Assembly (NCBI GenBank): GCA_964194905.1
Contig: CAXMOD010000073.1
Span: forward strand, 1-47,968
Source: an uncultured Desulfobacterales bacterium
GTDB taxonomy: Bacteria > Myxococcota_A > UBA9160 > JAFDET01
Reading direction: 5' to 3'
Length of the DNA stretch: 47,968 nt
Shown: in pieces, positions 7,091 through 34,894 of the stretch
Position numbering within the stretch: position 1 is the first letter of the stretch
Layout of the letters: each line of letters begins with the position of its first letter
Made by a program: the position numbers and the translations under genes
Notes under the pieces: model-generated
The model's input: only the letters and a program-made list of their open reading frames with translations
Told to the model about the DNA's origin: nothing
The model's database searches: none

Positions 7091-7375
7091 GTGGACGTGT
7101 CCATCCGGTTCTCCCCCTCGGGCCGGAGCGTTCGGGTGCCGGTGGGCACCTCCCTGCTCGAGGCGGTCCGCAAGGCGGGCCTTCCCATCGCCAGCGCGTG
7201 CGGTGCGAGCGCGCTGTGCGGCCGCTGCGGGGTGCGGGTGCTGACGGGGATGGACACGGGCGAATCGACCGCGGAGACAGACGCGAAGCGACGCAACCGG
7301 GTGGCGGACGAGCTGCGCCTCGCGTGCTTCGTGGAGGTCGAGGGCGACCTCGAGATCACCGCCCCCTACTGGTAG
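7091..7375 (+). CDS. 2Fe-2S ferredoxin (plant/adrenodoxin-like small iron-sulfur protein)
   Basis: Cys pattern C-x5-C-x2-C...C (ASACGASALCGRCGV...LACFVEV). GTG at 7091 (or 7097). Only the last ~94 aa of the 350-aa track ORF are plausible. Confidence 0.65.
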   Translation: MDVSIRFSPSGRSVRVPVGTSLLEAVRKAGLPIASACGASALCGRCGVRVLTGMDTGESTAETDAKRRNRVADELRLACFVEVEGDLEITAPYW

Positions 7376-7405
7376 GGAGCAGTCACAGGACGGCAAGGAG
7401 ACAGC

Positions 7406-8323
7406 ATGCGTATCGGAATCGGCGGACGCGGAACCACGCTGGAAGGCGCGGTGGAAGAGGTGAAGAACGCCGAACTGGCGGGCTTCGCCTCGATCTGGTT
7501 CAGCAACATCTTCGGCCACGACGCGCTCAGCCTGATCGCAGTGGCGGGACGCGAGAGCGAGCGGATCGAGCTCGGCACCGCGGTCGTGCCCACCCACTCG
7601 CGCCACCCGTTCTTCATGGCGCAGCAGGCCATGACCACCAACGCCGCCTGCGGCGGCCGTCTGGCCCTCGGCCTGGGTCCCAGCCACAAGGTGGTCATCG
7701 AGAACATGCTGGGCCTCTCCTACGACAAGCCCGCCCGCCACGTGCGTGAGTACGTGCAGGTGCTGAAGGCTCTCCTCGACGAGGGCCGGGTCGAGCACCA
7801 GGGCGAGGTCTACCGTGTCCGCGGCCAGCTCAGCGCCAAGGATGCCAAGCCGTTCCCCGTGCTGGTGGGCGCACTCGGCAAGCTCATGCGCAAGGTGGCC
7901 GGCGAGCTAGCGGACGGCACCGTCACCTGGATGACGGGCCGGCGCACCCTGGCCGAAGAGATCGGCCCCGACGTGCGGTCGGCGGCGGAGGCGGCTGGGC
8001 GCCCGGAGCCGCGTATCGTCGCGGCGCTGCCGGTTTGCGTGACGACCGACACCGACGCGGCGCGCGAAAGCATCGACAAGATGCTGGCGATGTACCCCAC
8101 TCTCCCGTCCTACCGCGCGATGATGGACCTGGAGGGCGCAACGCGCCCCAGCGACATCGCGCTCATCGGCGACGAGGCCACGGTGCGCAAGGGCGTGGCC
8201 GGGCTCGTGGACGCCGGTGTCACCGACTTCAACTGCACGGTGACCGGTGCCGGCGGCGACGCCAAGGCGTCGGCAGAGCGCACCTACGCGCTGATCGCCG
8301 AGGTGGCGCGGAGCACCTCTTGA
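7406..8323 (+). CDS. LLM-class (luciferase-like) flavin/F420-dependent oxidoreductase
   Basis: AAGGAG lies 6 nt upstream of the ATG. TIM-barrel LLM-family pattern (GFASIWFSN, LGTAVVP, LGLGPSH, PVLVGALG). F420 dependence is inferred, not proven. Confidence 0.8.
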   Translation: MRIGIGGRGTTLEGAVEEVKNAELAGFASIWFSNIFGHDALSLIAVAGRESERIELGTAVVPTHSRHPFFMAQQAMTTNAACGGRLALGLGPSHKVVIENMLGLSYDKPARHVREYVQVLKALLDEGRVEHQGEVYRVRGQLSAKDAKPFPVLVGALGKLMRKVAGELADGTVTWMTGRRTLAEEIGPDVRSAAEAAGRPEPRIVAALPVCVTTDTDAARESIDKMLAMYPTLPSYRAMMDLEGATRPSDIALIGDEATVRKGVAGLVDAGVTDFNCTVTGAGGDAKASAERTYALIAEVARSTS

Positions 8324-9501
8324 GCCCCTCGGACACGAACGGCAAGAAGGGTGGGGCGGGCTTCGCTACGCGCGCCATCCACGTCGGCCAGGAGCCGGAT
8401 TCCGCGACCGGCGCGACGGTCCCTCCGGTCTACCAGACGGTGACGTTCACCCAGGACGCGATCGGCCGGAACAAGGGCTTCGAGTACTCGCGCACCGACA
8501 ACCCCACGCGCCGCGCGCTGGAGGAGGCGCTGGCCTCGCTCGAGGGCGGGCGCTTCGGCTTTGCCTACGGCTCGGGCATGGCCGCCATCGCGGGCGCCAT
8601 GCAGTTGGTGCGCGCCGGCGACCACGTGGTGGTGGCCGACGACCTCTACGGCGGCTCCTACCGCCTCTTCAACCACGTTCTTCCCGAGTACGGCGTTCGC
8701 TTCACGTTCGCCGACGCGACGAAGCTCGAAGAGTTTGCCAAGGCGGTCGAGCCTGAAACGAAGATGCTCTGGATCGAGACGCCCACCAACCCGCTGTTGC
8801 GTCTGGTGGACGTGGCAGCCTGCGCCGAGATCGCCCGCGGCGCTGAAGCGAAGCTCGTGGTGGACAACACTTTCGCCACGCCGCTCCTCCAGAACCCGCT
8901 GGCGTTGGGCGCCCACGTGGTGGTGCACTCCACCACCAAGTACATCGGCGGCCACTCGGACGTGATCGGCGGCGCAGTGGTCCTGGACGACGAGGAGGCG
9001 GCGCAACGCCTCCAGTTCACGCGCAACGCCACCGGCGGCATCCCGGGCCCCTGGGATGCCTGGCTCACCCTGCGCGGCTTGAAGACGCTCGCGGTGCGCA
9101 TGCGTCAGCACCAGGAGAACGCCCAGCGCGTGGCCGAGTTCCTGGTGGAGCGCCCCGAGGTGGCGCGCGTCCACTACCCGGGCCTGCCCGACCATCCCGG
9201 CCACCAGCTGGCGGCGCGTCAGATGCGCGGCTTCGGAGGCATGCTGGCCCTCGACCTGGCGGGCGGCGAGCAGGCCGCGAAGACCTTTTGTCAGTCCACC
9301 CAACTCATCTCCCTGGGCGAGAGCCTCGGCGGCGTGGAGTCGCTCATCGGCTACCCGTTCAGCATGAGCCACGGCGCCTTCCCGCCCGAGGAGAAGCGCC
9401 GCAAGGGGATCAGCGAGGCGACGGTGCGCCTGTCGGTCGGGATCGAGGACGTCGACGACCTGTGTGAGGACCTGGCCCAGGCCCTCGACCGGATCGCATG
9501 A
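8320..9501 (+). CDS. PLP-dependent trans-sulfuration enzyme (cystathionine gamma-synthase/gamma-lyase/O-succinylhomoserine sulfhydrylase family)
   Basis: YSRTDNPTR, the PLP-lysine motif HSTTKYIGGHSD, and SLGGVESL. TTG start at 8320 overlaps the LLM stop (TTGA). There is no ATG before the conserved N-terminus. Confidence 0.85.
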   Translation: MSPSDTNGKKGGAGFATRAIHVGQEPDSATGATVPPVYQTVTFTQDAIGRNKGFEYSRTDNPTRRALEEALASLEGGRFGFAYGSGMAAIAGAMQLVRAGDHVVVADDLYGGSYRLFNHVLPEYGVRFTFADATKLEEFAKAVEPETKMLWIETPTNPLLRLVDVAACAEIARGAEAKLVVDNTFATPLLQNPLALGAHVVVHSTTKYIGGHSDVIGGAVVLDDEEAAQRLQFTRNATGGIPGPWDAWLTLRGLKTLAVRMRQHQENAQRVAEFLVERPEVARVHYPGLPDHPGHQLAARQMRGFGGMLALDLAGGEQAAKTFCQSTQLISLGESLGGVESLIGYPFSMSHGAFPPEEKRRKGISEATVRLSVGIEDVDDLCEDLAQALDRIA

Positions 9502-9860
9502 AGCCCGCCCTCGTCCTGGTCGATCACGGGAGCCGCCGGGCTGAGGCCAACTCCGCACTCGATGAGCTGGCCGCGCTGGTGCGCGCCGCGGATCCCGAGC
9601 GCTGTGTGCACGTCGCCCACATGGAGCTCGCGCCGCCGGAGCTCGAGTCGGCGCTGGGCGCCTGTGCGGCCGAGGGCGCGCGCAGCGTGACCGTCGTGCC
9701 GGTGTTCCTCGGGCCGGGCCGCCACACCCACGAGGACATCCCGCGCCTGGTGCGCGAGGCCGAAGCGAAGCACCCAGAGCTGTCGGTCCGGGTTGCCCCG
9801 CCCCTGGGGCCCCACCCGCTGCTGGCAGAGCTCGTCCTGACACGCGCGGCGGAGGTGTAG
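9498..9860 (+). CDS. cbiX: Small CbiX/SirB-type sirohydrochlorin chelatase
   Basis: 120 aa with LVLVDHGSRR...VVPVFLGPGRHTHEDIP, typical of CbiX(S). ATGA overlap with the upstream gene. Confidence 0.8.
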   Translation: MKPALVLVDHGSRRAEANSALDELAALVRAADPERCVHVAHMELAPPELESALGACAAEGARSVTVVPVFLGPGRHTHEDIPRLVREAEAKHPELSVRVAPPLGPHPLLAELVLTRAAEV

Positions 9861-19542: not shown

Positions 19543-19603
19543 GGGCCGGAGGCTAGCGTTTTGCCGGCCCGATCGAGTAGCCTTGTCCTTTGTCCGCCAA
19601 TGA

Positions 19604-19690
19604 GAAGCCTGGGGGTGGCCCGCAACGCGCGGGCCTGAGATCAGACCCTTCGAACCTGAACTCGTTCACGCGAGCGTAGGGAAGGCAGCC
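19604..19690 (+). promoter_or_regulatory. TPP (THI-box) riboswitch
   Basis: GGGGGUGGCCCGC-aacgc-GCGGGCCUGAGAucagACCCUUCGAACCUGAaCUCG-uucacg-CGAGCGUAGGGAAGGC. The CUGAGA, ACCCUU.GAACCUGA and GCGUAGGGA cores are conserved, with P3 (GGCCCGC/GCGGGCC), P5 (CUCG/CGAG) and P1 (GCCU/AGGC). It lies 59 nt upstream of thiC. Confidence 0.9.
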
Positions 19691-19748
19691 GATCCCAAGA
19701 CCCCTCGGCGCTCCCAGACCCGGAGACCCATCCGGAGGAGCCCGAGCC

Positions 19749-21533
19749 ATGTCACAACGTCACGAACATCCGCTTCCGCCTCTTCCCCCGCTGGGGAACA
19801 ACCCGTCCACCCAAGCCGAGGGCACCACGCCCAGCAGCTTCGCGAACCCGCCCCAGCTGGGCGGGCCGCTCTCCTTCTCGTCGCCGGACACGCCCGGCAT
19901 GCCGCCGCCGTCGCCGAAGACCGCCTGGGACTTCCTGCCCGAGGGTTGGGAGCGGGATCCGGCCGGCGGCTTCGCCGTCGCCCCGCAGGGTTTCGTTCCC
20001 GTGACGCAGCTCGAGCACGCGCGCGTCGGAAACGTGACGCACGAGATGCGGCGCGTGGCCGAGCGCGAGCCGCACCTGACACCCGAGCAGGTGCGCGACG
20101 AGGTGGCCGCGGGCCGCATGGTGATTCCCGCCAACAAGGCGCACCTCTCCTACGCCCTCGACCCCATGTGCATCGGCCGTGCCAGCAAGACCAAGATCAA
20201 CGCCAACATGGGCGCGTCGCCCGTTTCGAGCTCCACCGACGAAGAGGTGGAGAAGCTGACCTGGGCCGAGCGCTGGGGCGCCGACACGGTGATGGACCTC
20301 TCCACCGGCGGCGATCTCGACGGCACGCGTGAGGCGATCATCAAGAACTCGACCGTGCCGATCGGCACGGTGCCGATCTACTCGATGATCATCGGGCGGA
20401 AGATCGAGGATCTGACGCGCGAGCTGATCCTCGATCAGATCGAGCACCAGGCCCGCCAGGGTGTGGACTACATGACCGTCCACGCGGGAGTCCTGCGCGC
20501 ACACCTGCCCCACGTGCAGGACCGCCTCATCGGGATCGTGTCCCGGGGCGGCTCGCTCCTGGCCAAGTGGATGATCCACCACGAGCGCGAAAACCCCATG
20601 TACGACGCGTGGGACGACATCTGCGAGGTGCTGCGCCGCTGGGACGTGACCTTCTCCATCGGCGACGGGCTGCGCCCCGGCGGCCTGGCCGACGCCAGCG
20701 ACCGCGCGCAGCTCGCCGAGCTCTCCACGCTCGCCGAGCTGACGGAGCGCGCCTGGCGCCACGGGGTCCAGGTCATGGTGGAGGGTCCGGGCCACGTCCC
20801 GTTCGACCAGATCGAGTACAACATGAAGCTCCAGCGTGCGCTCTGCCACGGCGCGCCGTTCTACGTGCTGGGGCCGCTGGTGACGGACATCTTCCCCGGT
20901 TACGACCACATCACGTCGGGCATTGGCGCCACTGCGGCCGGCTACCACGGAGCCGCGATGCTCTGCTACGTGACGCCCAAGGAGCATCTCGGGCTCCCCA
21001 AGCGGGACGACGTGAAGCAGGGCTGCATCGCCTACAAGATCGCGGCCCATGCCGCGGACGTGGCCCTCGGCATCCCAGGGGCGCGCGACCGCGACGACGA
21101 GCTGACCAAGGCCCGCGCCGCGCTCAACTGGGAGAAGCACTTCGAGCTCTCCTTCGACCCGGACACGGCTCGCGCGTACCACGACGAGGACCTCGACGTG
21201 GACACGGACTTCTGCGCCATGTGCGGGCACGATTGGTGCAGCGTGCGCATCAGCAAGGAGATCATCCAGTTCGTGTCCGGCAAGGACGAGGCCTACGCCT
21301 GGGACAAGCCCCAGGTGACGGCTGCGCTGTCATCGGATCAGCGCGAGATCCTGGAGAAGCGTGGGGTGCTCTCGCCCGGGGAGATCCACCGCCTGGCGAG
21401 CAAGACCCGCAAGGCCATGAGCGCCGTCGAGGGCAAGGCGGCCTGCCACAGCGACCTGACGGACGACGATGACGCTCGCTCGCTCCAGGACGAGCGCATC
21501 AGCGTGGAGGAGTTCGTCCGGAACGGTGCGTAG
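19749..21533 (+). CDS. thiC: Phosphomethylpyrimidine synthase (radical SAM) with N- and C-terminal extensions
   Basis: [42 protein letters not shown] and the C-terminal CxxCxxxxC (CAMCGHDWC). GGAGGAG lies 8 nt upstream of the ATG, and the riboswitch is upstream. Confidence 0.9.
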
Positions 21534-25653: not shown

Positions 25654-27021
25654 ATGCTCCCCCCTCAACTCTGGAACGGCGTCCTGAGGCGCCTCACGCC
25701 CGAAATCGGGACCTTCGCCATGGAGGCGTGGGTTCACCCGGTGCGTGCCGAAGCCGACGGAGACGCCCTGTGCCTCTTCTGCCCCTCGGTGTTTCACCGG
25801 GAGCGCGTGCGCCAGCGTTTGCTCGAGCGCATCGAACGCTGTGTGGGCGAAGAAGCGGGCCACCCCGTGCGCGTGAGACTCGAGGTGGGCGCGGGTTCGG
25901 CTCGCGACGCGGAGCCGCACGCGACTCCCCAAGCGGAGGCGACCCCCGCGCCGATCGCGCCGTCCGTGCGCGCAGTCCGCGAGCAACCGCCCGCCCAGCG
26001 GGCGTTGCCCTACTCGTTCGACAACTTCGTGGTCGGCGCGTGCAACGCGCTGGCTCGCCAGGCCTGCCTGGAATTGGCCGCCAACCGCCGCAGTACCCTT
26101 TCGTCGGTCTACATCAGCGGCGCGCCGGGGCTGGGCAAGACCCACCTGGCCCGATCGGTCGTCGCCGAGGCCGCTGGAGCCGCGCACGCCCTCTACGTCT
26201 CGGCTGAGACCTTCACCAGCGAATTCCAGTCCCACGTGCGCGGCGGGCGCATGGAGGCGTTCAAGCGTCGCTACCGCGGCGCAGACCTGCTGGTGGTGGA
26301 GGACGTCCAGTTCCTGCCGGGCAAGAAGGCCACCCAGCTCGAACTCTTCCACACCATCGACCACCTGCGCGACGGCGGGGCGCGCCTCGTCTTCACCGCG
26401 GACCGCCCGCCCTGGGACATTCCGGGGCTCTACCCCCGCCTGCGTTCTCGCTGGAACGGCGGCCTCGTCGCACAGCTCGAGCCGCCCGACGCCCAGGTGC
26501 GCCGGAAGATCCTGCGCACGCGAGCCGCGGCCGGAGGCGTGCGCATCCCCGGCGACTGCCTCGACCTGCTGGTGCAGCGCCTGCGCGGCAGCGTCCGCGA
26601 CCTGGAGGGCGCGCTGATCCAGCTGGTCGCCACCTCGGCACTGCTGAAGCGGCGAATCGATCTCGAGCTGACCGAGCAGGCGCTGCACAAGGTGATGCCC
26701 CGGGCCGGCGCCGGGCGCAGCATCGAGCCGCGCGACGTGGTGGAGGTGGTCGCCGCGTTCTTCCAGACCACACCCGCGGCGCTGGCCTCGCGCTCGCGCC
26801 GGCGCGACGTGCTGCTGCCGCGCCAGCTGGCCATGTACCTGGCCCACCGCTACACGGACGCCTCGCTCACCGAGATCGGGCGCGCATTCGACCGGGACCA
26901 CCCGGCCGTGAAGAACGCCGTCGGGCGCGTCGAGCGCGGCATCCTGGAGCGCGCTCCGCTGCGCTACCAGGTCGAGGCCCTGTGCGCCCGCCTGGACGAG
27001 CGCCTCGGCTCAGCTTCCTGA
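25654..27021 (+). CDS. dnaA: Chromosomal replication initiator protein DnaA
   Basis: Domain I LWNGVLRRL...EAWV, Walker A GAPGLGKTHL, Walker B LLVVEDVQFL, RLRSRWNGGL, and domain IV AMYLAHRYTDASLTEIGRAFDRDHPAVKNA. Confidence 0.9.
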   Translation: MLPPQLWNGVLRRLTPEIGTFAMEAWVHPVRAEADGDALCLFCPSVFHRERVRQRLLERIERCVGEEAGHPVRVRLEVGAGSARDAEPHATPQAEATPAPIAPSVRAVREQPPAQRALPYSFDNFVVGACNALARQACLELAANRRSTLSSVYISGAPGLGKTHLARSVVAEAAGAAHALYVSAETFTSEFQSHVRGGRMEAFKRRYRGADLLVVEDVQFLPGKKATQLELFHTIDHLRDGGARLVFTADRPPWDIPGLYPRLRSRWNGGLVAQLEPPDAQVRRKILRTRAAAGGVRIPGDCLDLLVQRLRGSVRDLEGALIQLVATSALLKRRIDLELTEQALHKVMPRAGAGRSIEPRDVVEVVAAFFQTTPAALASRSRRRDVLLPRQLAMYLAHRYTDASLTEIGRAFDRDHPAVKNAVGRVERGILERAPLRYQVEALCARLDERLGSAS

Positions 27022-28263
27022 GCCCCCCGGATTGGCCGCTTTCCGGCCGCCTTCCTCCGCCAGCCGCCAGCGCGTGGGGCCGGAGAGCTCCTGCTCCACC
27101 GGCGGCTCCAGAGAGGGCGGGTCCTTCTCGGGGTCGTCGAAGCGGCGCAGCGTGCCGTAGGTGGTGCTGCGCTCCACCGGCATCCGCCCGATCTCGCGAG
27201 TCAGACGGCGCATCTCCTCCTGCGGGAGGTTCTCACCGAAGTCCGCCCCCGACTCGCGGCTGATCGACTCCTCCATCAGCGTGCCGCCGAAGTCGTTGGC
27301 GCCGGACATGAGCCCGAGCTGCGCGACCTTGGGCCCCATCTTCACCCACGAGACCTGGATGTTCGTGATCCAGGGGCGCAGGAAGAGGCGCGCCACGGAC
27401 ACGAGCCGAAGGTCCTCGAGCATCGAGGAGCCGGGTCGCGCGTGCATGTGGTTGAACAGCACGTTCTTTTCGTGGATGAACCCGAGGGGCACGAACTCCG
27501 TGAAGCCGCCCGTCTGCTTCTGGATGTCGCGCAAGAGCCCCAGGTGCTGGGCCACGTGGCCGTGATTCTCGATGTGGCCGTACATCAGCGTGGACGTCGA
27601 GCGAAGGCCGATCGAATGCGCGGTGGTCACGATCTCCACCCAGCGGTCGCGCCCGAGCTTGCGCGGCGACACGACCTGCCGCACCTCGTCGTCCAGGATC
27701 TCGGCCGCGGTGCCGGGCATCGTCCCGAGACCCGCCTCCACCAGCCAGCGCAGGTAGTCCGCCAGCTCCATGCCGCTCTTGCGGTGGCCGAAGTCGACCT
27801 CCTCGGGGGAGAACGCGTGGATGTGCACCTTCGGGAAGGCGGCCTTCAGGGTCTCCAGGATCTCGTGGTAGTGGGTGTGGTTCTTGCCCGGGTGGATGCC
27901 GCCCTGGATGCAGAACTCGGTCGCCCCGCGGGCCACCGCATCGCGGCCCTTCTCGATCAGCACCTCCATCGGATGGTCGTAGGCGTCCGTCTCGTCCTTG
28001 TGGCGCGCGAAGCCGCAGAAGGAGCAGCCCACGTAGCAGACGTTGGTGAAGTTCATGTTCCGGCACACGACGTAGGAGACGTCGTCACCGTTGTCCTCGA
28101 AGCGTACCAGGTCCGCTGCCCGGGCCAGCGCGTGGAAGTCGGCACCCTCGGCGCGCAGCAGCCGCTCCGCGTCCGACACGTCGAGCTCGCGGCCGGACAG
28201 CGCCCGGTCCACGATGTCCGCCACCTGCGGGTCGATTCCACTCAGCAGACGCTCGATGCTCAT
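27010..28263 (-). CDS. cofH: 7,8-didemethyl-8-hydroxy-5-deazariboflavin (FO) synthase subunit CofH (radical SAM)
   Basis: CNMNFTNVCYVGCSFCGF radical-SAM cluster, then FCIQGGIHPG and GANDFGGTLMEE. The ATG overlaps the cofG stop (ATGA). Confidence 0.85.
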   Translation of the reverse strand: MSIERLLSGIDPQVADIVDRALSGRELDVSDAERLLRAEGADFHALARAADLVRFEDNGDDVSYVVCRNMNFTNVCYVGCSFCGFARHKDETDAYDHPMEVLIEKGRDAVARGATEFCIQGGIHPGKNHTHYHEILETLKAAFPKVHIHAFSPEEVDFGHRKSGMELADYLRWLVEAGLGTMPGTAAEILDDEVRQVVSPRKLGRDRWVEIVTTAHSIGLRSTSTLMYGHIENHGHVAQHLGLLRDIQKQTGGFTEFVPLGFIHEKNVLFNHMHARPGSSMLEDLRLVSVARLFLRPWITNIQVSWVKMGPKVAQLGLMSGANDFGGTLMEESISRESGADFGENLPQEEMRRLTREIGRMPVERSTTYGTLRRFDDPEKDPPSLEPPVEQELSGPTRWRLAEEGGRKAANPGGSGS

Positions 28264-29519
28264 GCTGCCGCTACTCCGCTTGTACTGGCGCTTTTACTGG
28301 CGCTCTTGCCGGCGCCCGGGGATCGTACCCAACCTTCGTGGTCCACGAGCCGCAGCGCTGCCTCGCGCACGGCAGGAGCGAAGCGTTCGGGGCGACCCAG
28401 CAGATCCTCAGGATAGACCGGAAGCCGTTCGACGAGTCGCTGGCCCGCCGCCTCGGTGCGGCGGCGCAGCTCCGGCAAGGTGGGCCAGGGCGCCTCCGGG
28501 TTGATGAAGTCGAGGGTCACCGGCGAAACGCCGCCCCAGTCGTTGAGGCCCGACCTGAGGAGCAACTCGAGCACCTCGGGCGCCAGGTTCGGCGGCGCCT
28601 GCACGTTGTGCTGCGGGCCCAGGACGAGGCGCGTCAGAGCCACCCAGCCTGCCACCAGCGCGTCATCCAGCGGCGACTCGGCGCGCATGCCGGTGCCCGG
28701 CTTGGGATGGAAGGGCTGCACGATCGTCTCCTGGATGTGGCCATGGCGCTCGTCCAGGTCGCGGATGGCGAAGAGCGTGTCCACTCGCTCCAGCTCGGTC
28801 TCGCCGATCCCGAGGAGCAGGCCCGTGGTGAACGGGATGCCGAGCTCGCCGGCCTCCTCGTGCATGCGCAGGCGCACCGCGGGCTTCTTGTCGGGCGCGT
28901 GGAAGTGCGCGCCGCCCTTCGCGCACAGACGCTCGCTCGTGGACTCGAGCATGAGGCCCAGCGAGGCATTCCACGGCCGCAGGCTCTCCATTTCCGCCAC
29001 GCTGAGGATGCCCGCGTTGGTGTGCGGGAGCATGCCGCCCTCGAAGCCGATGCGGCAGGCGTCCACCAGGTAGTGGGGCGTGCTGTTGTAGCCGCGCTGG
29101 GACAGCCAGTCGCGGTGTGAGGCGTAAGCGATCTCGGGCTTGTCGCCCAGGCAGAAGAGCGCCTCGATGCAGCCCGTGGCCACGCCCCCGCGCACTACGT
29201 CGGCCACCTCGTCCAGGCTGTAGGTATGGGCCTCGGCCGAGTCCGGCTGCTTGGCGAAGGTGCAGTAGGTGCAGCGGTCCCGGCACAGGTTCGTGAGCGG
29301 GATGAAGACGTTGCGCGAGAAGGAGACGACGTCGCCCTTGCCGCGCCGCTTGCTCTCGAGCGCGCCCTCGCGCACCGCAGCGCGCACGCCGGCGTCGTGC
29401 AGGTGCAGGGCCAGGCGCTCCGCCGGCGGGCGGGCGAGTGCGCCCGAGTCGACCGCCTCGGCGACCAGGCGTTCGGCCTCGGCACGGGCGAGCGGTGCTC
29501 CGGATGCGGGAGCAGTCAC
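28260..29519 (-). CDS. cofG: FO synthase subunit CofG (radical SAM)
   Basis: VFIPLTNLCRDRCTYCTF cluster, then HTNAGIL, TTGLLLGIGE and QPFHPKPGT. GTG 29519 overlaps the sulfite reductase stop (GTGA). Confidence 0.85.
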   Translation of the reverse strand: MTAPASGAPLARAEAERLVAEAVDSGALARPPAERLALHLHDAGVRAAVREGALESKRRGKGDVVSFSRNVFIPLTNLCRDRCTYCTFAKQPDSAEAHTYSLDEVADVVRGGVATGCIEALFCLGDKPEIAYASHRDWLSQRGYNSTPHYLVDACRIGFEGGMLPHTNAGILSVAEMESLRPWNASLGLMLESTSERLCAKGGAHFHAPDKKPAVRLRMHEEAGELGIPFTTGLLLGIGETELERVDTLFAIRDLDERHGHIQETIVQPFHPKPGTGMRAESPLDDALVAGWVALTRLVLGPQHNVQAPPNLAPEVLELLLRSGLNDWGGVSPVTLDFINPEAPWPTLPELRRRTEAAGQRLVERLPVYPEDLLGRPERFAPAVREAALRLVDHEGWVRSPGAGKSASKSASTSGVAAA

Positions 29520-31249
29520 CCCGAATCCTCCAGTCCCACCCAGGCACGCAGCTGGGCCGGGTCGGTCTGGTGCAGGAAGTCGCCGACCGGGAGGCCGGCG
29601 CTGTTGTGCTCCTTCACGGCCTGGAAGAGTCCGACGAGAGCGGGAATCATCTGTTCCTCGGGAAGGCGCCCGTAGAGAGTATGGGCAATGCGGGTGCCCT
29701 GGCGCGAGCCCCCCACCAGGATCACGTGGTCGTTCTTGCCGTAGCCGTAGATACCCACCTCGGCGCTCGGCGGACGGACGCAGTTGTTGGGGCATCCGGT
29801 CATGCGGATGACCGCATCCACGTCGCCGCAGCCCGCTGCCTCGATGGCGTCGAGGTAGATCGGCAGGATGTTCTCCGCGTCGGTCATCGCGAGCCCGCAG
29901 GTGGGCAAGGCCGGGCAGGCCATCGCGTTGCGGCGGGCTATCGAGACCTGCGCCGGATCCGTCACGCCCTCTTCGGCGAGCAGCGCCTCCAGCGCCGCAC
30001 GATCGCGAACGCCGCACAGGATCAGGTCCTGCTGACCCGTCAGGCGCACACCGCAGCCCAGCTCGGTCACCGCGCGGCGCACGGCGCGACGCAGGTCCGG
30101 TTTGACGCGGCCGTTCTCCACGGAAATCCCGTAGTAGCCGCCGCCCCCGCGCTGCTCGTGCCAGCCCAGGTGGAGGTTCATCGGGGGGACCGTCACCGGC
30201 TCGGCGTCGGCCAGATCCACGCCGAAGGTGCCGCGCAGCTCCTTGCGCACCCGCTCGAGACCGAGGCGGCGGATCGTGTACTTCCAGCGCGCCAGCTTGC
30301 GGTCCCTGCGCTCGCCGTGATCGCGCTGCAGCACGGCGATGCCGCGCACCGCGTCCACCACCTGGTTGCGTCGCACCCGGCCCAGGTACTCGCCGAGGAG
30401 CGCCGCCGTGTGGGGGTTGTTGTGGGTGAGGCCCATGCCGCCGCCCGAGTAGAAGTCCCACTCGGCGCCGTCCGGCGTCACCGGGATCAGACCCACGTCG
30501 TTGGTGAGGACGTCCACGGAGTTGTCGCGGGGGTGGGCGATCCCCACCTTGAACTTGCGCGGCAGGTAGTTGGGCCCGTACACGGGCTCTTCCGGCGTCA
30601 GGTTCTTCGCGCCGTCCTCGGTCGACAGGAAGATCTGGAGGTAGGCGCCTGTGCGGGGCGCCAGCTCGTCCGCGATCTCCCGGGCCAGCGCGCTTCCGCC
30701 CGGGTCCGCGTCGGGGTCCAGCCCGTCGATCGGCGAGCACATGACGTTGCGGTTCACGTCGCCGCAGGCCGCCAGGGTGCCGCCCGTCAGGTACGCCTGG
30801 TTCAGGTGCTTGACCAGGGCTCGCAGGTCGCGCCCCCTCACATGGTGGTACTGGATGGACTGGCGTGAGGTGATGCGCAGGGTGCCGTCGGCGAAGCGCT
30901 CCGAGGTGTCGTCGAGAGCGCACCACTGCTCCGGGGAGAGCACACCTCCCCCGGGGTTCTTGATGCGGATCATGAAGACCAGGTCGCCGGTCAGGCGGCC
31001 GCGCTCACCGCGGATCTGCTGCTTGTAGATCCCGAAGAACTTGGAGAGCTCCTTCGCGACCTTGCCGATGGTCTCGGTCTCGCCCGCCTCCATCGCGCCG
31101 AGCTCGTCGGCGAAGGTGTGGGGCTGCTTGGGGTCGAGGACGTGGAAGAGCCCCTCGCTGGCCAGCTTGATCTTCTCGTTCTTGCTCATCCCCTCGACCG
31201 AGGCGTTGCCGAGGGTCACGGGAGCCTTGGGGGAGGGTTCCCAGGCCAT
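29516..31249 (-). CDS. cysI: Assimilatory sulfite reductase hemoprotein (siroheme/4Fe-4S), CysI-type
   Basis: YLPRKFK, RRDRKLARWKYT, and the siroheme/cluster cysteines ACPALPTCGLA and TGCPNNCVRP. The layout is colinear with E. coli CysI. AAGGAG lies 7 nt upstream of ATG 31249. Confidence 0.85.
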   Translation of the reverse strand: MAWEPSPKAPVTLGNASVEGMSKNEKIKLASEGLFHVLDPKQPHTFADELGAMEAGETETIGKVAKELSKFFGIYKQQIRGERGRLTGDLVFMIRIKNPGGGVLSPEQWCALDDTSERFADGTLRITSRQSIQYHHVRGRDLRALVKHLNQAYLTGGTLAACGDVNRNVMCSPIDGLDPDADPGGSALAREIADELAPRTGAYLQIFLSTEDGAKNLTPEEPVYGPNYLPRKFKVGIAHPRDNSVDVLTNDVGLIPVTPDGAEWDFYSGGGMGLTHNNPHTAALLGEYLGRVRRNQVVDAVRGIAVLQRDHGERRDRKLARWKYTIRRLGLERVRKELRGTFGVDLADAEPVTVPPMNLHLGWHEQRGGGGYYGISVENGRVKPDLRRAVRRAVTELGCGVRLTGQQDLILCGVRDRAALEALLAEEGVTDPAQVSIARRNAMACPALPTCGLAMTDAENILPIYLDAIEAAGCGDVDAVIRMTGCPNNCVRPPSAEVGIYGYGKNDHVILVGGSRQGTRIAHTLYGRLPEEQMIPALVGLFQAVKEHNSAGLPVGDFLHQTDPAQLRAWVGLEDSG

Positions 31250-31301
31250 TTCCACTCCTTGGGACGAGGCGCGGGCCGCTGGCGCCGAGGGAGGCCGGAT
31301 T

Positions 31302-32252
31302 CTAGCGGCTTTTCGAGGGCTTGTAGACATTGACGCCCCTCTCGGGGGCCGTCCGCCAGCGCCGGTGGACCCACGACCAGTGGTCTGGTGCGCGCCGGAT
31401 GGCCTCCTCGATGGCACGCGTCATACGCTGAACGTTTTCGATGACCGCGGCGTCGAGATCGTTACCCGCCTCCTCCGCGCTGACGAAGGGGACGGCAGGC
31501 CCGAAGCGGGCCACCCGGCCGCTGCCATCCGGGCGCCGGAAGAGGAAGCCCGGCACCACCGGCGCGCCGGTGCGCATCGCGAGGCGGGCCGGGCCGTCGC
31601 GGGTGCAGGCCGGGCGCCCGAAGAAGTCCACGAAGACGCCCTCGCCCCGGGGCGTGTCCTGGTCGAGAGGCATCCCGATGATGCGCCCCTGGCGCAGGGC
31701 CCGCAGCACCGCGCGGGCCGCCGAGCCGCGCCGCAGCGCCTCGACGCCCGCCCCGCCGCGCCACTCCTCGAGTACGCGCTGGAACCCGGGAAAGCTCTGC
31801 TCGCGGTGCACCACGGAGACGGGGATGCCGCGCGCCGCGCACGCCGCGGAGAAGAGCTCGAAGGACCCGAAGTGCGCGGTGAGCAGGATGGCGCCGCCCT
31901 CGGGCGTGGCGCGCTGGGCCGCCTCGATGTGCTCGAAGCCCTCGAACGCGACCAGCGCTTCGGACGAGTCGAGGTCGAGCCGCGCGATCTCGGCCGCATC
32001 CACCAGGTGCTCGGCCAGATGGGCGAACGACTCGACGAGGATCGCGTGGCGCTCCTCGGCGCTCTTCTCCGGGAAGGCGATCTGCAGGTTGGTGGCGGCC
32101 ACGCCCGTCCGCGGTCCGCCGAGCCGCGCCCAGGTACGCCCGAAGGAGCGGCAGCCGGCCAGCGCAACGCGGCGCGGCAGCGCTCGCACCGCGGCCAGCA
32201 GCAAGCGCAGCGCGTGATAGAGGATGGTATCCAGGAAGGAGCGGGCGGACAC
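31302..32252 (-). CDS. Lysophospholipid/lipid A biosynthesis acyltransferase (LpxL/HtrB family)
   Basis: The LTAHFGSFE (HX4D/E-like) motif and overall family pattern, with C-terminal DHWSWVHRRW. GTG start lies 7 nt after the folB stop. Confidence 0.7.
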   Translation of the reverse strand: MSARSFLDTILYHALRLLLAAVRALPRRVALAGCRSFGRTWARLGGPRTGVAATNLQIAFPEKSAEERHAILVESFAHLAEHLVDAAEIARLDLDSSEALVAFEGFEHIEAAQRATPEGGAILLTAHFGSFELFSAACAARGIPVSVVHREQSFPGFQRVLEEWRGGAGVEALRRGSAARAVLRALRQGRIIGMPLDQDTPRGEGVFVDFFGRPACTRDGPARLAMRTGAPVVPGFLFRRPDGSGRVARFGPAVPFVSAEEAGNDLDAAVIENVQRMTRAIEEAIRRAPDHWSWVHRRWRTAPERGVNVYKPSKSR

Positions 32253-32259
32253 GCGGGGA

Positions 32260-32634
32260 CTAGAGGTCCTCGCGGGTGCGCGTGATACGGATGCCCGCGT
32301 ACTCGAGCACGCCGCTGATCGGCTTGGGCTTGCGGACGGTCACCGTCACCCGCTCCACGTCGAACTTGCCGAGCACCGCCGCGGCGATGCGCGCGCCCAG
32401 CGCCTCCACCAGCTTGTGCTCCTGGTTCGAAGCCACGTCCTCCACGATCTCGTAGATGCGCTTGTAGTGGATGGTGGAGCGGATGTGGTCCGTGCGGCCC
32501 GCCGGGCGCAGGTCACAACCCACCTCGAGGTCGAGGGTCACGGGCCGACGCATGCGCCGCTCTGCGGCGGTCACTCCCAGCGCCGCCGGCACCTGGATCC
32601 CCTCCAGGAGGATGACGTCTTCGCCGTTGGCCAT
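32260..32634 (-). CDS. folB: Dihydroneopterin aldolase
   Basis: 124 aa. GVTAAERRMRRPVTLDLEV...TIHYKRIYEIV...LVEALGARIA is typical of FolB. Confidence 0.8.
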   Translation of the reverse strand: MANGEDVILLEGIQVPAALGVTAAERRMRRPVTLDLEVGCDLRPAGRTDHIRSTIHYKRIYEIVEDVASNQEHKLVEALGARIAAAVLGKFDVERVTVTVRKPKPISGVLEYAGIRITRTREDL

Positions 32635-32645
32635 GGTCGACGTCC

Positions 32646-33650
32646 TCAGCCACCGATCTGGGACATCGTGCGCCCGGGCTTCACGAACATCCCATCGGTG
32701 ATGTGGTGCTTCTTCTCCTTGGTGGCCACGGCGCCGTGCAACAGCGCCACCAGCTCGGCGTCATCGGCTCCCGCGCGCAGCGCGCCCAGCAGGTTGTGCT
32801 CGCGCAGCGAGAAGAGACACGTTCGGATCTTGCCGTCCGCGGTGAGGCGGATGCGGTTGCAGTCGGCGCAGAAGGGCTGCGTCACCGAGTCGATGAAACC
32901 CACTAGGCCCGGCGCCCCGTCGCTGAAGATCCAGTCCCGGCTCGGCGCGTGGGGGTCCTGGTCGGGGTGGGGCTCGATGGGGAAGACCCCGCCGATGCGC
33001 TCGCGCAGCTCGGCGCCGGGCACCATCACGTCGGTGCCCCAGTTGCTGCCGTGCTCGAGCGGCATGAACTCGATGAAGCGCACCTCGAAGCCGCGCTCCC
33101 GGGCGAAGCGGGCGAAGTCCACGGCCTCGTGATCGTTGCGATCGCGAATGACCACGCAGTTGATGCTCATGGGGCGGAGCCCCGCGGCGTCGGCGGCGTC
33201 GATCCCGGCCATCACCTGGGAGTGGGCGTCGCGCCTGGTGAGCGAGCGGAAGTTCTCGGGGTCGAGCGAGTCGAGGCTGATGTTGACGCGCTGGAGACCC
33301 GCCTTGCTGAGGGGCTCGGCCAGGCGCGTGAGCTGGGTGGCGTTGGTGGTGAGGGCCAGGTCCACGAGGTCCGGGATGGGCGCCAGGCGCCCCACCAGGC
33401 CGGGCAGATCCTTGCGCAGCAGGGGCTCGCCGCCGGTGAGGCGCAGCTTGCGGATCCCGCTCGCCACCGCGAGCCGCGCCACCCGCTCGATCTCCTCGAA
33501 GCTCATCAGCTCCTTGCGCGGCAGCCACTCCACATCCTCGGGCATGCAGTAGAAGCAGCGCAGATCGCAGCGGTCCGTCACCGAGATGCGCAGGCTCTCG
33601 ATCCGCCGCTGGTAGCGGTCGCTGAGGGGTCGGAGGGGCTCGGCGGACAT
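32646..33650 (-). CDS. moaA: GTP 3',8-cyclase (molybdenum cofactor biosynthesis, radical SAM)
   Basis: LRISVTDRCDLRCFYCMP cluster, LTGGEPLLR, the C-terminal cluster CADCNRIRLTADGKIRTCLF, and a GG C-terminus. Confidence 0.9.
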   Translation of the reverse strand: MSAEPLRPLSDRYQRRIESLRISVTDRCDLRCFYCMPEDVEWLPRKELMSFEEIERVARLAVASGIRKLRLTGGEPLLRKDLPGLVGRLAPIPDLVDLALTTNATQLTRLAEPLSKAGLQRVNISLDSLDPENFRSLTRRDAHSQVMAGIDAADAAGLRPMSINCVVIRDRNDHEAVDFARFARERGFEVRFIEFMPLEHGSNWGTDVMVPGAELRERIGGVFPIEPHPDQDPHAPSRDWIFSDGAPGLVGFIDSVTQPFCADCNRIRLTADGKIRTCLFSLREHNLLGALRAGADDAELVALLHGAVATKEKKHHITDGMFVKPGRTMSQIGG

Positions 33651-33697
33651 GGGCCCGAGAGACTAGCAAGCGCGGGAGGTTGCTACCCTCCGGCGCC

Positions 33698-34894
33698 ATG
33701 GCCGACCACCCCACCCTGGAGGAGATCCGCGCCCGCGAGGCGGCCCACTTCCTGCCCGTCGTGAACCGGCTACCGGTGGCGCTGGTGGAGGGCCGCGGCT
33801 CGCGCGTGCGCGACGTGGCCGGCAAGGAGTACGTGGACCTCACCGGCGGCTGGGGCGTCACGGCCATCGGCCACTGCCATCCGGCGCTCAGCCGGGCCAT
33901 CGCCGACCAGGCCGGCCGGCTGATGCAGACCACCAACCTCTTCTACACGCTGCCGCAGCTCGACCTGATCGAGACCCTGGCGGCCAGGACCCCCGAGGGC
34001 CTGACGCGGAGCTTCCTGGTCTCGAGCGGCGCCGAGGCCGTGGACGGCGCGCTCAAGCTCGCGCACCGGTCCACCGGCCGGCGCCAGTTCGTAGCGACCC
34101 ACGGGAGCTTCCACGGCCGCACCCTGGGCGGGCTCTCGGTGATCGGCCAGGCCAAGCACCGCGAGCGCTACGCGCCGCTGCTCCAGGAGCAGGAGTTCGT
34201 CGCGTTCGGCGACCTCGCCGCCGCCGAGGCCGTGGTGGGCGAGCAGACCGCGGCGGTGATCGTGGAGCCGATTCAGGGCGAGGGCGGCGTCCAGGTGCCG
34301 CCCGCCGACTACCTTCCCGGCCTGCGCGCGCTGTGCGACCGCAGCGGTGCGCTGCTGGTCGCCGACGAGATCCAGACCGGCGTCGGACGCACCGGACGCT
34401 GGGTGGCGGTGCAGCACGACGACGTCACACCCGACATCCTGACCCTGGGCAAGGGCCTCGGGGGAGGCTTTCCCATTGCCGCCTTCCTGTGCACGGAGGC
34501 CGTGGCCAAGTCGGTGCAGCCCGGCGACCACGGCGGGACCTACGCCGGCAACCCGCTGGCCTCCGCCGCGGCGAACGCCGTGCTGCGCGTCATCGACGAA
34601 GAGGGTCTGGTCGAACGCGCCTCGTCTCTGGGCGCTGAGTTGCGCGGGCGCCTCGACGCCTTCGCCGCCGAACATGCGGAGCACGCCGAAGGCGCGCGGG
34701 GCCGCGGCCTGCTCCAGGGCCTGGTGCTGCGCGACGCCGAGCGCGTGGCGACGATCCCGACGCGCGCCATCGAGCAGGGCGTGCTGGTGAACGTCACCGC
34801 GGGCAACGTGATGCGTTTCTTCCCCGCCCTCAACATCCCGGAAGAGGATCTCTGGCCCGCGCTCGACCGCGTGCTCCGGCTGGTCCTCCCGTAG
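33698..34894 (+). CDS. argD: Class III PLP aminotransferase (acetylornithine aminotransferase-like)
   Basis: GSFHGRT, EPIQGEGG, LLVADEIQTGVGRTG and the PLP-Lys motif DILTLGKGLGGGFP. I prefer ATG 33698 over the track's TTG at 33680. Confidence 0.75.
   Translation: MADHPTLEEIRAREAAHFLPVVNRLPVALVEGRGSRVRDVAGKEYVDLTGGWGVTAIGHCHPALSRAIADQAGRLMQTTNLFYTLPQLDLIETLAARTPEGLTRSFLVSSGAEAVDGALKLAHRSTGRRQFVATHGSFHGRTLGGLSVIGQAKHRERYAPLLQEQEFVAFGDLAAAEAVVGEQTAAVIVEPIQGEGGVQVPPADYLPGLRALCDRSGALLVADEIQTGVGRTGRWVAVQHDDVTPDILTLGKGLGGGFPIAAFLCTEAVAKSVQPGDHGGTYAGNPLASAAANAVLRVIDEEGLVERASSLGAELRGRLDAFAAEHAEHAEGARGRGLLQGLVLRDAERVATIPTRAIEQGVLVNVTAGNVMRFFPALNIPEEDLWPALDRVLRLVLP

Follow-up and report, generated by a model that had tools for sequence, protein, structure and literature searches.

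Several kinds of sulfite reductase are relevant to the locus described here. Escherichia coli and Salmonella use CysJI, encoded in cysJIH operons; the ferredoxin-type sulfite reductases (SiRs), such as those of plants and cyanobacteria, are stand-alone enzymes; and the methanogen Fsr is an FrhB/FpoF-like F420H2 dehydrogenase fused to a Dsr-like reductase. In Corynebacterium (fpr2-cysIXHDNYZ) and Mycobacterium (sirA-cysH-che1), a CysJ-independent sulfite reductase is reportedly encoded together with a small ferredoxin-like protein and a sirohydrochlorin ferrochelatase of the CbiX type. CofG and CofH make FO, the F420 chromophore, and are fused as FbiC in actinobacteria. We analyzed a 47,968-nt stretch of DNA (the window), which is a whole contig of a 3.3-Mb metagenome-assembled genome (70% G+C, 83% complete) from an uncultured member of the Myxococcota, and in which a sulfite reductase gene (sir) overlaps cofG, which in turn overlaps cofH. 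Archaeal Fsr is the only F420-dependent sulfite reductase named in a 2021 review of F420, and the same review makes no mention of Myxococcota. Our literature searches found no paper describing F420 in this phylum, and nothing relevant on a link of F420 with sulfite reductase in bacteria or Myxococcota, or of cofG or cofH with sulfite reductase.

The initial annotation of this stretch had suggested that sulfite reduction might be wired to a deazaflavin-dependent electron supply, or at least co-regulated with FO synthesis. Our results favor a different reading, in which Sir is a CysJ-independent, probably ferredoxin-dependent assimilatory sulfite reductase whose gene is likely co-transcribed here with those of FO synthase. 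The balance of the evidence leans toward the compact sir-cofG-cofH unit being a matter of genome architecture rather than of new redox wiring. All three genes belong to known families and are ordinary in themselves; it is their arrangement that is specific to the lineage.

The overlapping sir, cofG and cofH genes

The three genes lie on the minus strand, and their translations contain no stops. sir (29516..31249) encodes an assimilatory siroheme sulfite reductase hemoprotein of 577 aa (P0001), while cofG (28260..29519) and cofH (27010..28263) encode the radical S-adenosylmethionine (SAM) subunits of FO synthase, of 419 aa (P0002) and 417 aa (P0003), respectively. The sequence GTGA at 29516-29519 (context GGTGACT) combines the sir stop codon (TGA, 29518-29516) with the cofG start codon (GTG, 29519-29517), and ATGA at 28260-28263 (context CATGAGC) combines the cofG stop codon (TGA, 28262-28260) with the cofH start codon (ATG, 28263-28261). 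Read on the minus-strand sequence, both overlaps are as originally annotated. The GTG is the probable start of cofG; the cofG frame is open further upstream, and alignment of orthologues favors a start at or near 29519.

A sigma-70-like promoter candidate (TCTACA-17 nt-TAGAAT; 31299..31327, minus strand) is located ~50 nt before the sir ATG, inside the 3' end of an lpxL-like gene, and it is kept in L036 and L037, the two closest relatives. It is the sole promoter-like site in the 7.7 kb from 26500 to 34200, where 0.2 would be expected by chance. On the other side, the unit is closed by the convergent dnaA gene (25654..27021, plus strand; TIGR00362, 354 bits vs a cut-off of 344), the 3' end of which overlaps that of cofH by 12 nt (27010-27021). 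With its 4-nt overlaps and with the only promoter-like site upstream of sir, the three-gene set probably constitutes one transcription and translation unit in this genome, in agreement with the proposal of a coupled unit, and it would be expressed as a single transcript.

CofG scored 400 bits against TIGR03550 (cut-off 213) and CofH 447.6 bits against TIGR03551 (cut-off 374), and the cofG/cofH translations contain the radical-SAM CxxxCxxC motifs CRDRCTYC and CYVGCSFC. Like the split CofG/CofH of archaea and cyanobacteria, the two subunits are encoded by separate radical-SAM genes (here joined by the ATGA overlap) and pass the equivalog-domain models, and the proteins are not unusual. Elsewhere in the genome, cofC, cofD and cofE were found on contig C137, all above their cut-offs, and with cofG and cofH they make up a complete F420 biosynthesis pathway. 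Fno and 28 luciferase-like (LLM) family matches were also present. From this gene content, the organism is predicted to make F420 and to use it widely. For comparison of the window's own genome (G000) with relatives we used 61 genomes of the order, representing 12 families; gene calls in the relatives are heuristic. cofG is present in all 61 and in 92 of the 301 Myxococcota sampled, an occurrence of split cofG/cofH that is new for this group.

Identity of Sir and its probable electron donor

Sir contains the usual domain pairs, NIR_SIR and NIR_SIR_ferr (PF01077 and PF03460, each twice), and no extra domain in its 577 aa; as first noted, therefore, no F420H2-oxidising domain is fused to it. The protein carries the siroheme/4Fe-4S cysteine motifs CPALPTC and CPNNC, as well as RKFK, and residues C445, C451, C486, C490, R231, K232 and K234 are invariant in 24 orthologues. 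We take these cysteines to be cluster and siroheme ligands and the basic residues to bind substrate, as in E. coli CysI. Among the NCBIfam models, only NF010029 was passed (470.3 bits; cut-off 457), and the two classic equivalog models gave scores under their cut-offs: 379 bits for the ferredoxin SiR model TIGR02042 (cut-off 731.5) and 346 bits for the CysI model TIGR02041 (cut-off 756.55). Among solved structures, Sir is closest to the maize ferredoxin SiR (5h8v, 315 bits), with E. coli CysI (1aop/6c3m) at 249 bits. P0001-type Sir represents a lineage-specific clade whose nearest relatives outside the order are <40% identical, and sir is the only sulfite reductase gene found in the window's genome.

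Sir thus resembles the plant and cyanobacterial ferredoxin SiR, its best-scoring solved relative, in being a monomer-sized siroheme/4Fe-4S hemoprotein with the same domain layout, in preferring TIGR02042 among the two classic models, and in a genome that encodes a 2Fe-2S ferredoxin in a siroheme-related operon and no flavoprotein subunit. It differs in its score below the TIGR02042 cut-off, in belonging to a separate clade and in the position of its gene ahead of cofGH. Sir is also homologous to CysI and passes NF010029, whose name refers to NADPH; unlike in the CysJI system, however, no CysJ was found, sir lies outside any cysJIH-type operon, and the cysH-type genes are on other contigs. With the methanogens that use Fsr, the organism shares the predicted ability to make F420 and a siroheme enzyme for sulfite; Sir is of the assimilatory Sir/CysI type, in contrast to the fused, Dsr-like Fsr.

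The annotation of the locus as one without cysJ holds for the window and for the 83%-complete genome, in neither of which was there a match to TIGR01931, and none of the 61 genomes contained a match above the cut-off. That a CysI-type protein should require CysJ is a weak premise for this enzyme, which scores higher as a ferredoxin-type SiR, a stand-alone class, than as CysI. In one family of the order (f10; G029:C204, G022:C103 and G014:C420), we observed a diflavin reductase that resembles CysJ and scores ~400 bits, short of the CysJ cut-off; in two of the genomes it lies in open frames of ~1100 aa, and it is not near sir. The sulfate assimilation genes detected in the window's genome encode an adenylylsulfate (APS) reductase on contig C74 and a phosphoadenylylsulfate (PAPS) reductase-like protein on contig C69. 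An LLM-class oxidoreductase gene is divergent from the latter (G000:C69:16515-18794), a further case of an LLM gene beside a sulfur assimilation gene.

A ferredoxin donor is suggested by the lack of a detectable CysJ, by the higher score of Sir as ferredoxin SiR than as CysI, and by a conserved 2Fe-2S ferredoxin gene that is co-operonic with the siroheme chelatase gene cbiX. This ferredoxin would be the most economical donor, though it is kept in a genome without sir (G016). Its gene (7091-7375, plus strand) is the first of a four-gene operon (7091-9860) located 20 kb from sir, followed by genes for an F420-dependent LLM oxidoreductase (7406-8323; TIGR03564, 331 bits vs 234), a cystathionine gamma-synthase-like (metB-like) enzyme (8320-9501) and a small CbiX/SirB chelatase (9498-9860), all on the plus strand and with TTGA and ATGA overlaps; the ferredoxin, metB-like and chelatase genes were assigned by family matches. 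The four-gene operon is conserved in at least 20 relatives. Its invariant core is the ferredoxin-CbiX pair, which is also present in the sister order, while only some families have the LLM and metB-like insertions. This differs from the clusters described above for Corynebacterium and Mycobacterium, since the reductase gene here is 20 kb away from ferredoxin-CbiX and linked to cofGH instead.

With regard to siroheme synthesis, the window's genome encodes a CobA-HemD fusion (SUMT) in a hemA-hemC operon, and there is experimental precedent for CbiX as siroheme ferrochelatase (PMC4063343). The canonical precorrin-2 dehydrogenase (CysG N-terminal/SirC, TIGR01470) was detected in 0 of the 61 genomes, 60 of which carry a siroheme-type sulfite reductase, so that by these models the precorrin-2 dehydrogenase step has no candidate gene. 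Likewise, TIGR01470 gave no match in some controls, e.g. Synechococcus and Corynebacterium, which are known to use siroheme enzymes. The LLM beside CbiX was considered as a stand-in for this dehydrogenase; the idea is weakened because several families, and the sister order too, have ferredoxin-CbiX operons without the LLM, and because the model is silent in the controls.

Conservation of the sir-cofGH order

P0001-type sir is present in 45 of the 61 genomes. By search coordinates and tblastn within the loci, it is followed directly by cofG-cofH in 35 of these; among the other 10, two have an insertion of 1-7 kb with the order unchanged, three have the genes separated and five could not be sorted because of contig ends. 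In an independent scan of species representatives, 53 of 64 related loci had cofG on the downstream side of sir, as compared with 0 of 17 outgroup loci, in which Sir is <40% identical. The linkage is therefore conserved within the order and is not peculiar to this genome, a possibility that the initial annotation had left standing. Outside the order, neither type of sir was found within ~6 kb in any of 20 cofGH loci, which represent 10 other families of Myxococcota (the sister order among them).

The linkage is embedded in a larger block, moaA-folB-lpxL-[sir]-cofG-cofH|dnaA, which is conserved across the order and whose members are of unrelated function. Upstream of sir in the window, family matches identified an lpxL-like acyltransferase gene (31302-32252), folB (32260-32634) and moaA (32646-33650), the last of which also encodes a radical-SAM protein; these genes are on the same strand as sir and are separated by short gaps (31302..33650). 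In genomes without P0001-type sir, lpxL or folB is followed directly by cofGH and then dnaA. dnaA comes after cofH in 24 related loci, and the unit is therefore probably close to the replication origin. Conservation of order also extends over tens of kilobases: at least nine relatives have the ferredoxin-LLM cluster and cofG on one contig, at a distance of 16-42 kb. An Rfam scan detected no RNA element in or near the sir-cofG-cofH unit; elsewhere in the window, a thiamine pyrophosphate (TPP) riboswitch (RF00059, 63 bits; 19601-19699, plus strand) precedes a gene for a 594-aa protein at 19749-21533.

Analysis of the spacers indicated that the compact form is the exception. The median sir-cofG spacer in the relatives is ~70 nt, and overlap or abutment of these two genes is limited to the window's family and a few other lineages, while the ATGA overlap of cofG and cofH is kept in nearly all relatives. 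Of 67 loci, 35 carried an extended -10-like element (TGnTAnnnT, typically CGTGGTATGCT) 30-68 nt ahead of cofG, vs 4% of shuffles. It is conserved across the class (e.g. in the sir-cofG spacers of L041, L053 and L065) and occurs both in loci without sir (as in the lpxL-cofG spacer of L117) and in the sister order. Loci in which sir and cofG abut have lost it. Because most relatives keep a ~70-nt spacer with this element, the overlapping arrangement in the window appears to be a derived compaction of two neighboring units.

sir, for its part, has a promoter- or operator-like motif of its own that was not seen at cofG. In many relatives, including L015, L022, L046, L055, L072, L074 and others, a palindrome, GGAATT-N8-AATTCC, followed by a -10 box of the GCTAGTCT type, is located ~60-160 nt upstream of sir. 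The palindrome looks like an operator and may be the site of a putative regulator. It is absent from the window and from the two closest relatives, and was not found at cofG or at the ferredoxin-CbiX operon. Altogether, co-regulation of sir with FO synthesis is plausible only for the window's genus, in which co-expression of sir and cofGH is likely.

The sulfite reductase itself is not constant within the order. Of the 16 genomes that lack P0001-type sir, nine carry a non-orthologous NirA-family reductase of 751 aa (P0004), which is 27% identical to Sir and has a C-terminal extension of ~170 aa, six carry a third, NirA-like type, and one (G016) has none. The three types are mutually exclusive, with exactly one present in 60 of the 61 genomes, and the third type is never near cofGH.

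Gene order or metabolic coupling

We propose the following scheme for these results. In the common ancestor of the order, a sulfite reductase gene would have come to lie between lpxL and cofGH, in a conserved housekeeping block beside dnaA. Most members would have kept separate promoter-like elements for sir and for cofGH. In the genus of the window, the spacer would have been lost, so that cofGH would be coupled to sir in translation and would probably rely on the sir promoter for its transcription. Sir would reduce the sulfite formed by the APS/PAPS reductases encoded elsewhere in the genome, most likely with electrons from ferredoxin, while CofG and CofH, as the two FO synthase subunits, would feed the complete F420 pathway that serves many F420-dependent enzymes. 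F420 would have no direct role in Sir activity. The linkage is read as conserved gene order because the block is of unrelated function, cofGH stays in place without sir, synteny is long, the promoter-like elements are separate and linkage is not seen outside the order.

Several observations weigh against this scheme. In at least four genomes, which belong to three families, the slot of Sir between lpxL and cofG is occupied by the 751-aa NirA-type reductase, followed by genes for a 192-aa protein (P0005) and a rhodanese and, in G028, also by cysK. The cassette of reductase, P0005 and rhodanese genes is found, for example, in L116 (G045:C143, 2505-5710), as well as in L118 and L122; P0005 has no Pfam or NCBIfam family, and its look-alikes, in Acidobacteriota and Myxococcota, are annotated only as hypothetical. 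This replacement in situ is the strongest hint of selection for the link. Furthermore, sir-cofGH adjacency outlasts rearrangements of the flanks, as in argD(-)|sir-cofGH, in loci with a divergent GGDEF gene inserted upstream of sir, and in loci with varied downstream genes, and loss of the spacer leading to fusion seems to have occurred in more than one lineage. The ferredoxin/CbiX sulfur operon includes an F420-dependent LLM. As to the donor, the one NCBIfam model that Sir passes is named NADPH-dependent, and G016, without sir, a NirA-type reductase or CbiX, nevertheless keeps the candidate ferredoxin, which is therefore not a dedicated partner of Sir. Finally, the promoter calls on which the separation of the two units is based are consensus matches only.

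These points would fit a true coupling of F420 with sulfur assimilation, in which F420H2, regenerated by Fno or other dehydrogenases, feeds Sir through a putative mediator, such as a flavoprotein reducing the 2Fe-2S ferredoxin, or in which F420 is needed for activation of the reductase, e.g. in siroheme synthesis, and selection keeps the reductase gene beside cofGH. In addition to the adjacency in 35 of 45 genomes and the presence of two non-orthologous reductases, rhodanese and cysK in one slot, such a coupling would account for the maintenance of the ferredoxin-LLM-cystathionine synthase-CbiX operon, the lack of CysJ, the missing precorrin-2 dehydrogenase and the fusion into overlapping genes in this genus. 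We nevertheless consider it unlikely. The FrhB/FdhB-type domain PF04432, expected of an FrhB/FpoF-type F420H2-oxidising protein, was not found in the window's genome, and just 5 of the 61 genomes carry it, all of them from families other than that of the window. F420 is an obligate hydride carrier, and LLM enzymes pass the hydride directly, without a one-electron relay; a direct route from F420H2 to Sir therefore has no candidate. In several families and the sister order, moreover, the ferredoxin-CbiX operon has no LLM gene. cofGH occurs throughout the order, keeps its place in genomes that lack sir and is preceded by a promoter-like element of its own, while the type of reductase varies and the third type is never linked. 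Homologous recombination of related genomes across the conserved flanks can also bring about replacement in the same slot, and TIGR01470 is silent in siroheme-using controls too. Given the lack of an FrhB-type domain, the persistence of cofGH without sir, its own promoter-like element in most relatives and the 0 of 20 loci with such a linkage in other families, the proposed deazaflavin electron supply for sulfite reduction was not supported, and we judge F420-driven sulfite reduction to be improbable. About as doubtful is the more general idea that assimilatory sulfite reduction or siroheme-enzyme maturation in the order depends on the deazaflavin pool, as a bacterial, non-fused counterpart of Fsr; either a putative mediator would oxidise F420H2 and pass the electrons to the 2Fe-2S ferredoxin, or a step of siroheme formation would require F420.

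The remaining alternatives concern regulation and the identity of the gene products. CofG and CofH are Fe-S/SAM enzymes that consume S-adenosylmethionine, and expression from the sir promoter might tie FO synthesis to the supply of sulfide, cysteine and methionine. The radical-SAM nature of both proteins, the location of the unit in a cofactor gene cluster with moaA and folB, and the fusion of the genes in this genus agree with such a role, though none of this is specific to it; in most relatives, cofGH has a separate and apparently operator-free promoter-like element, and dozens of enzymes need F420 whatever the sulfur status, so we rate this explanation as rather improbable. It is very unlikely that the sir product is a nitrite reductase or other siroheme enzyme. 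Its scores under the cut-offs of both classic models and its distance from any relative outside the order would allow for this, but Sir passes the sulfite reductase model NF010029 and reaches only 134 bits against nitrite reductase models (cut-off 594), its gene is the sole sulfite reductase candidate in a genome that encodes APS/PAPS reductase, and it is mutually exclusive with the two other reductase types. Lastly, FO by itself serves as an antenna chromophore of photolyase in cyanobacteria and some other bacteria, and a cofGH confined to that role would have no tie to F420 redox chemistry. With cofC, cofD and cofE present above their cut-offs, Fno and many F420-type LLMs encoded, and no photolyase FAD_binding_7 domain found in the 83%-complete genome, this role of cofGH is barely credible and was rejected; FO is therefore not merely a photolyase antenna in this organism.

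The reading of the compact unit as conserved gene order, tightened in one genus, makes the locus a worked example of how a tight operon in a single genome can represent the recent fusion of two neighboring transcription units rather than shared function. The comparison also revealed that a single order can contain three types of sulfite reductase that exclude one another, two of which share a chromosomal slot, and documents a whole uncultured order of Myxococcota that, according to its gene content, makes F420 and carries many F420-type enzymes. If the link between sir and cofGH were functional after all, assimilatory sulfite reduction coupled to F420 would be described for the first time in a bacterium, and F420 would gain a further role beyond those in archaea and actinobacteria.

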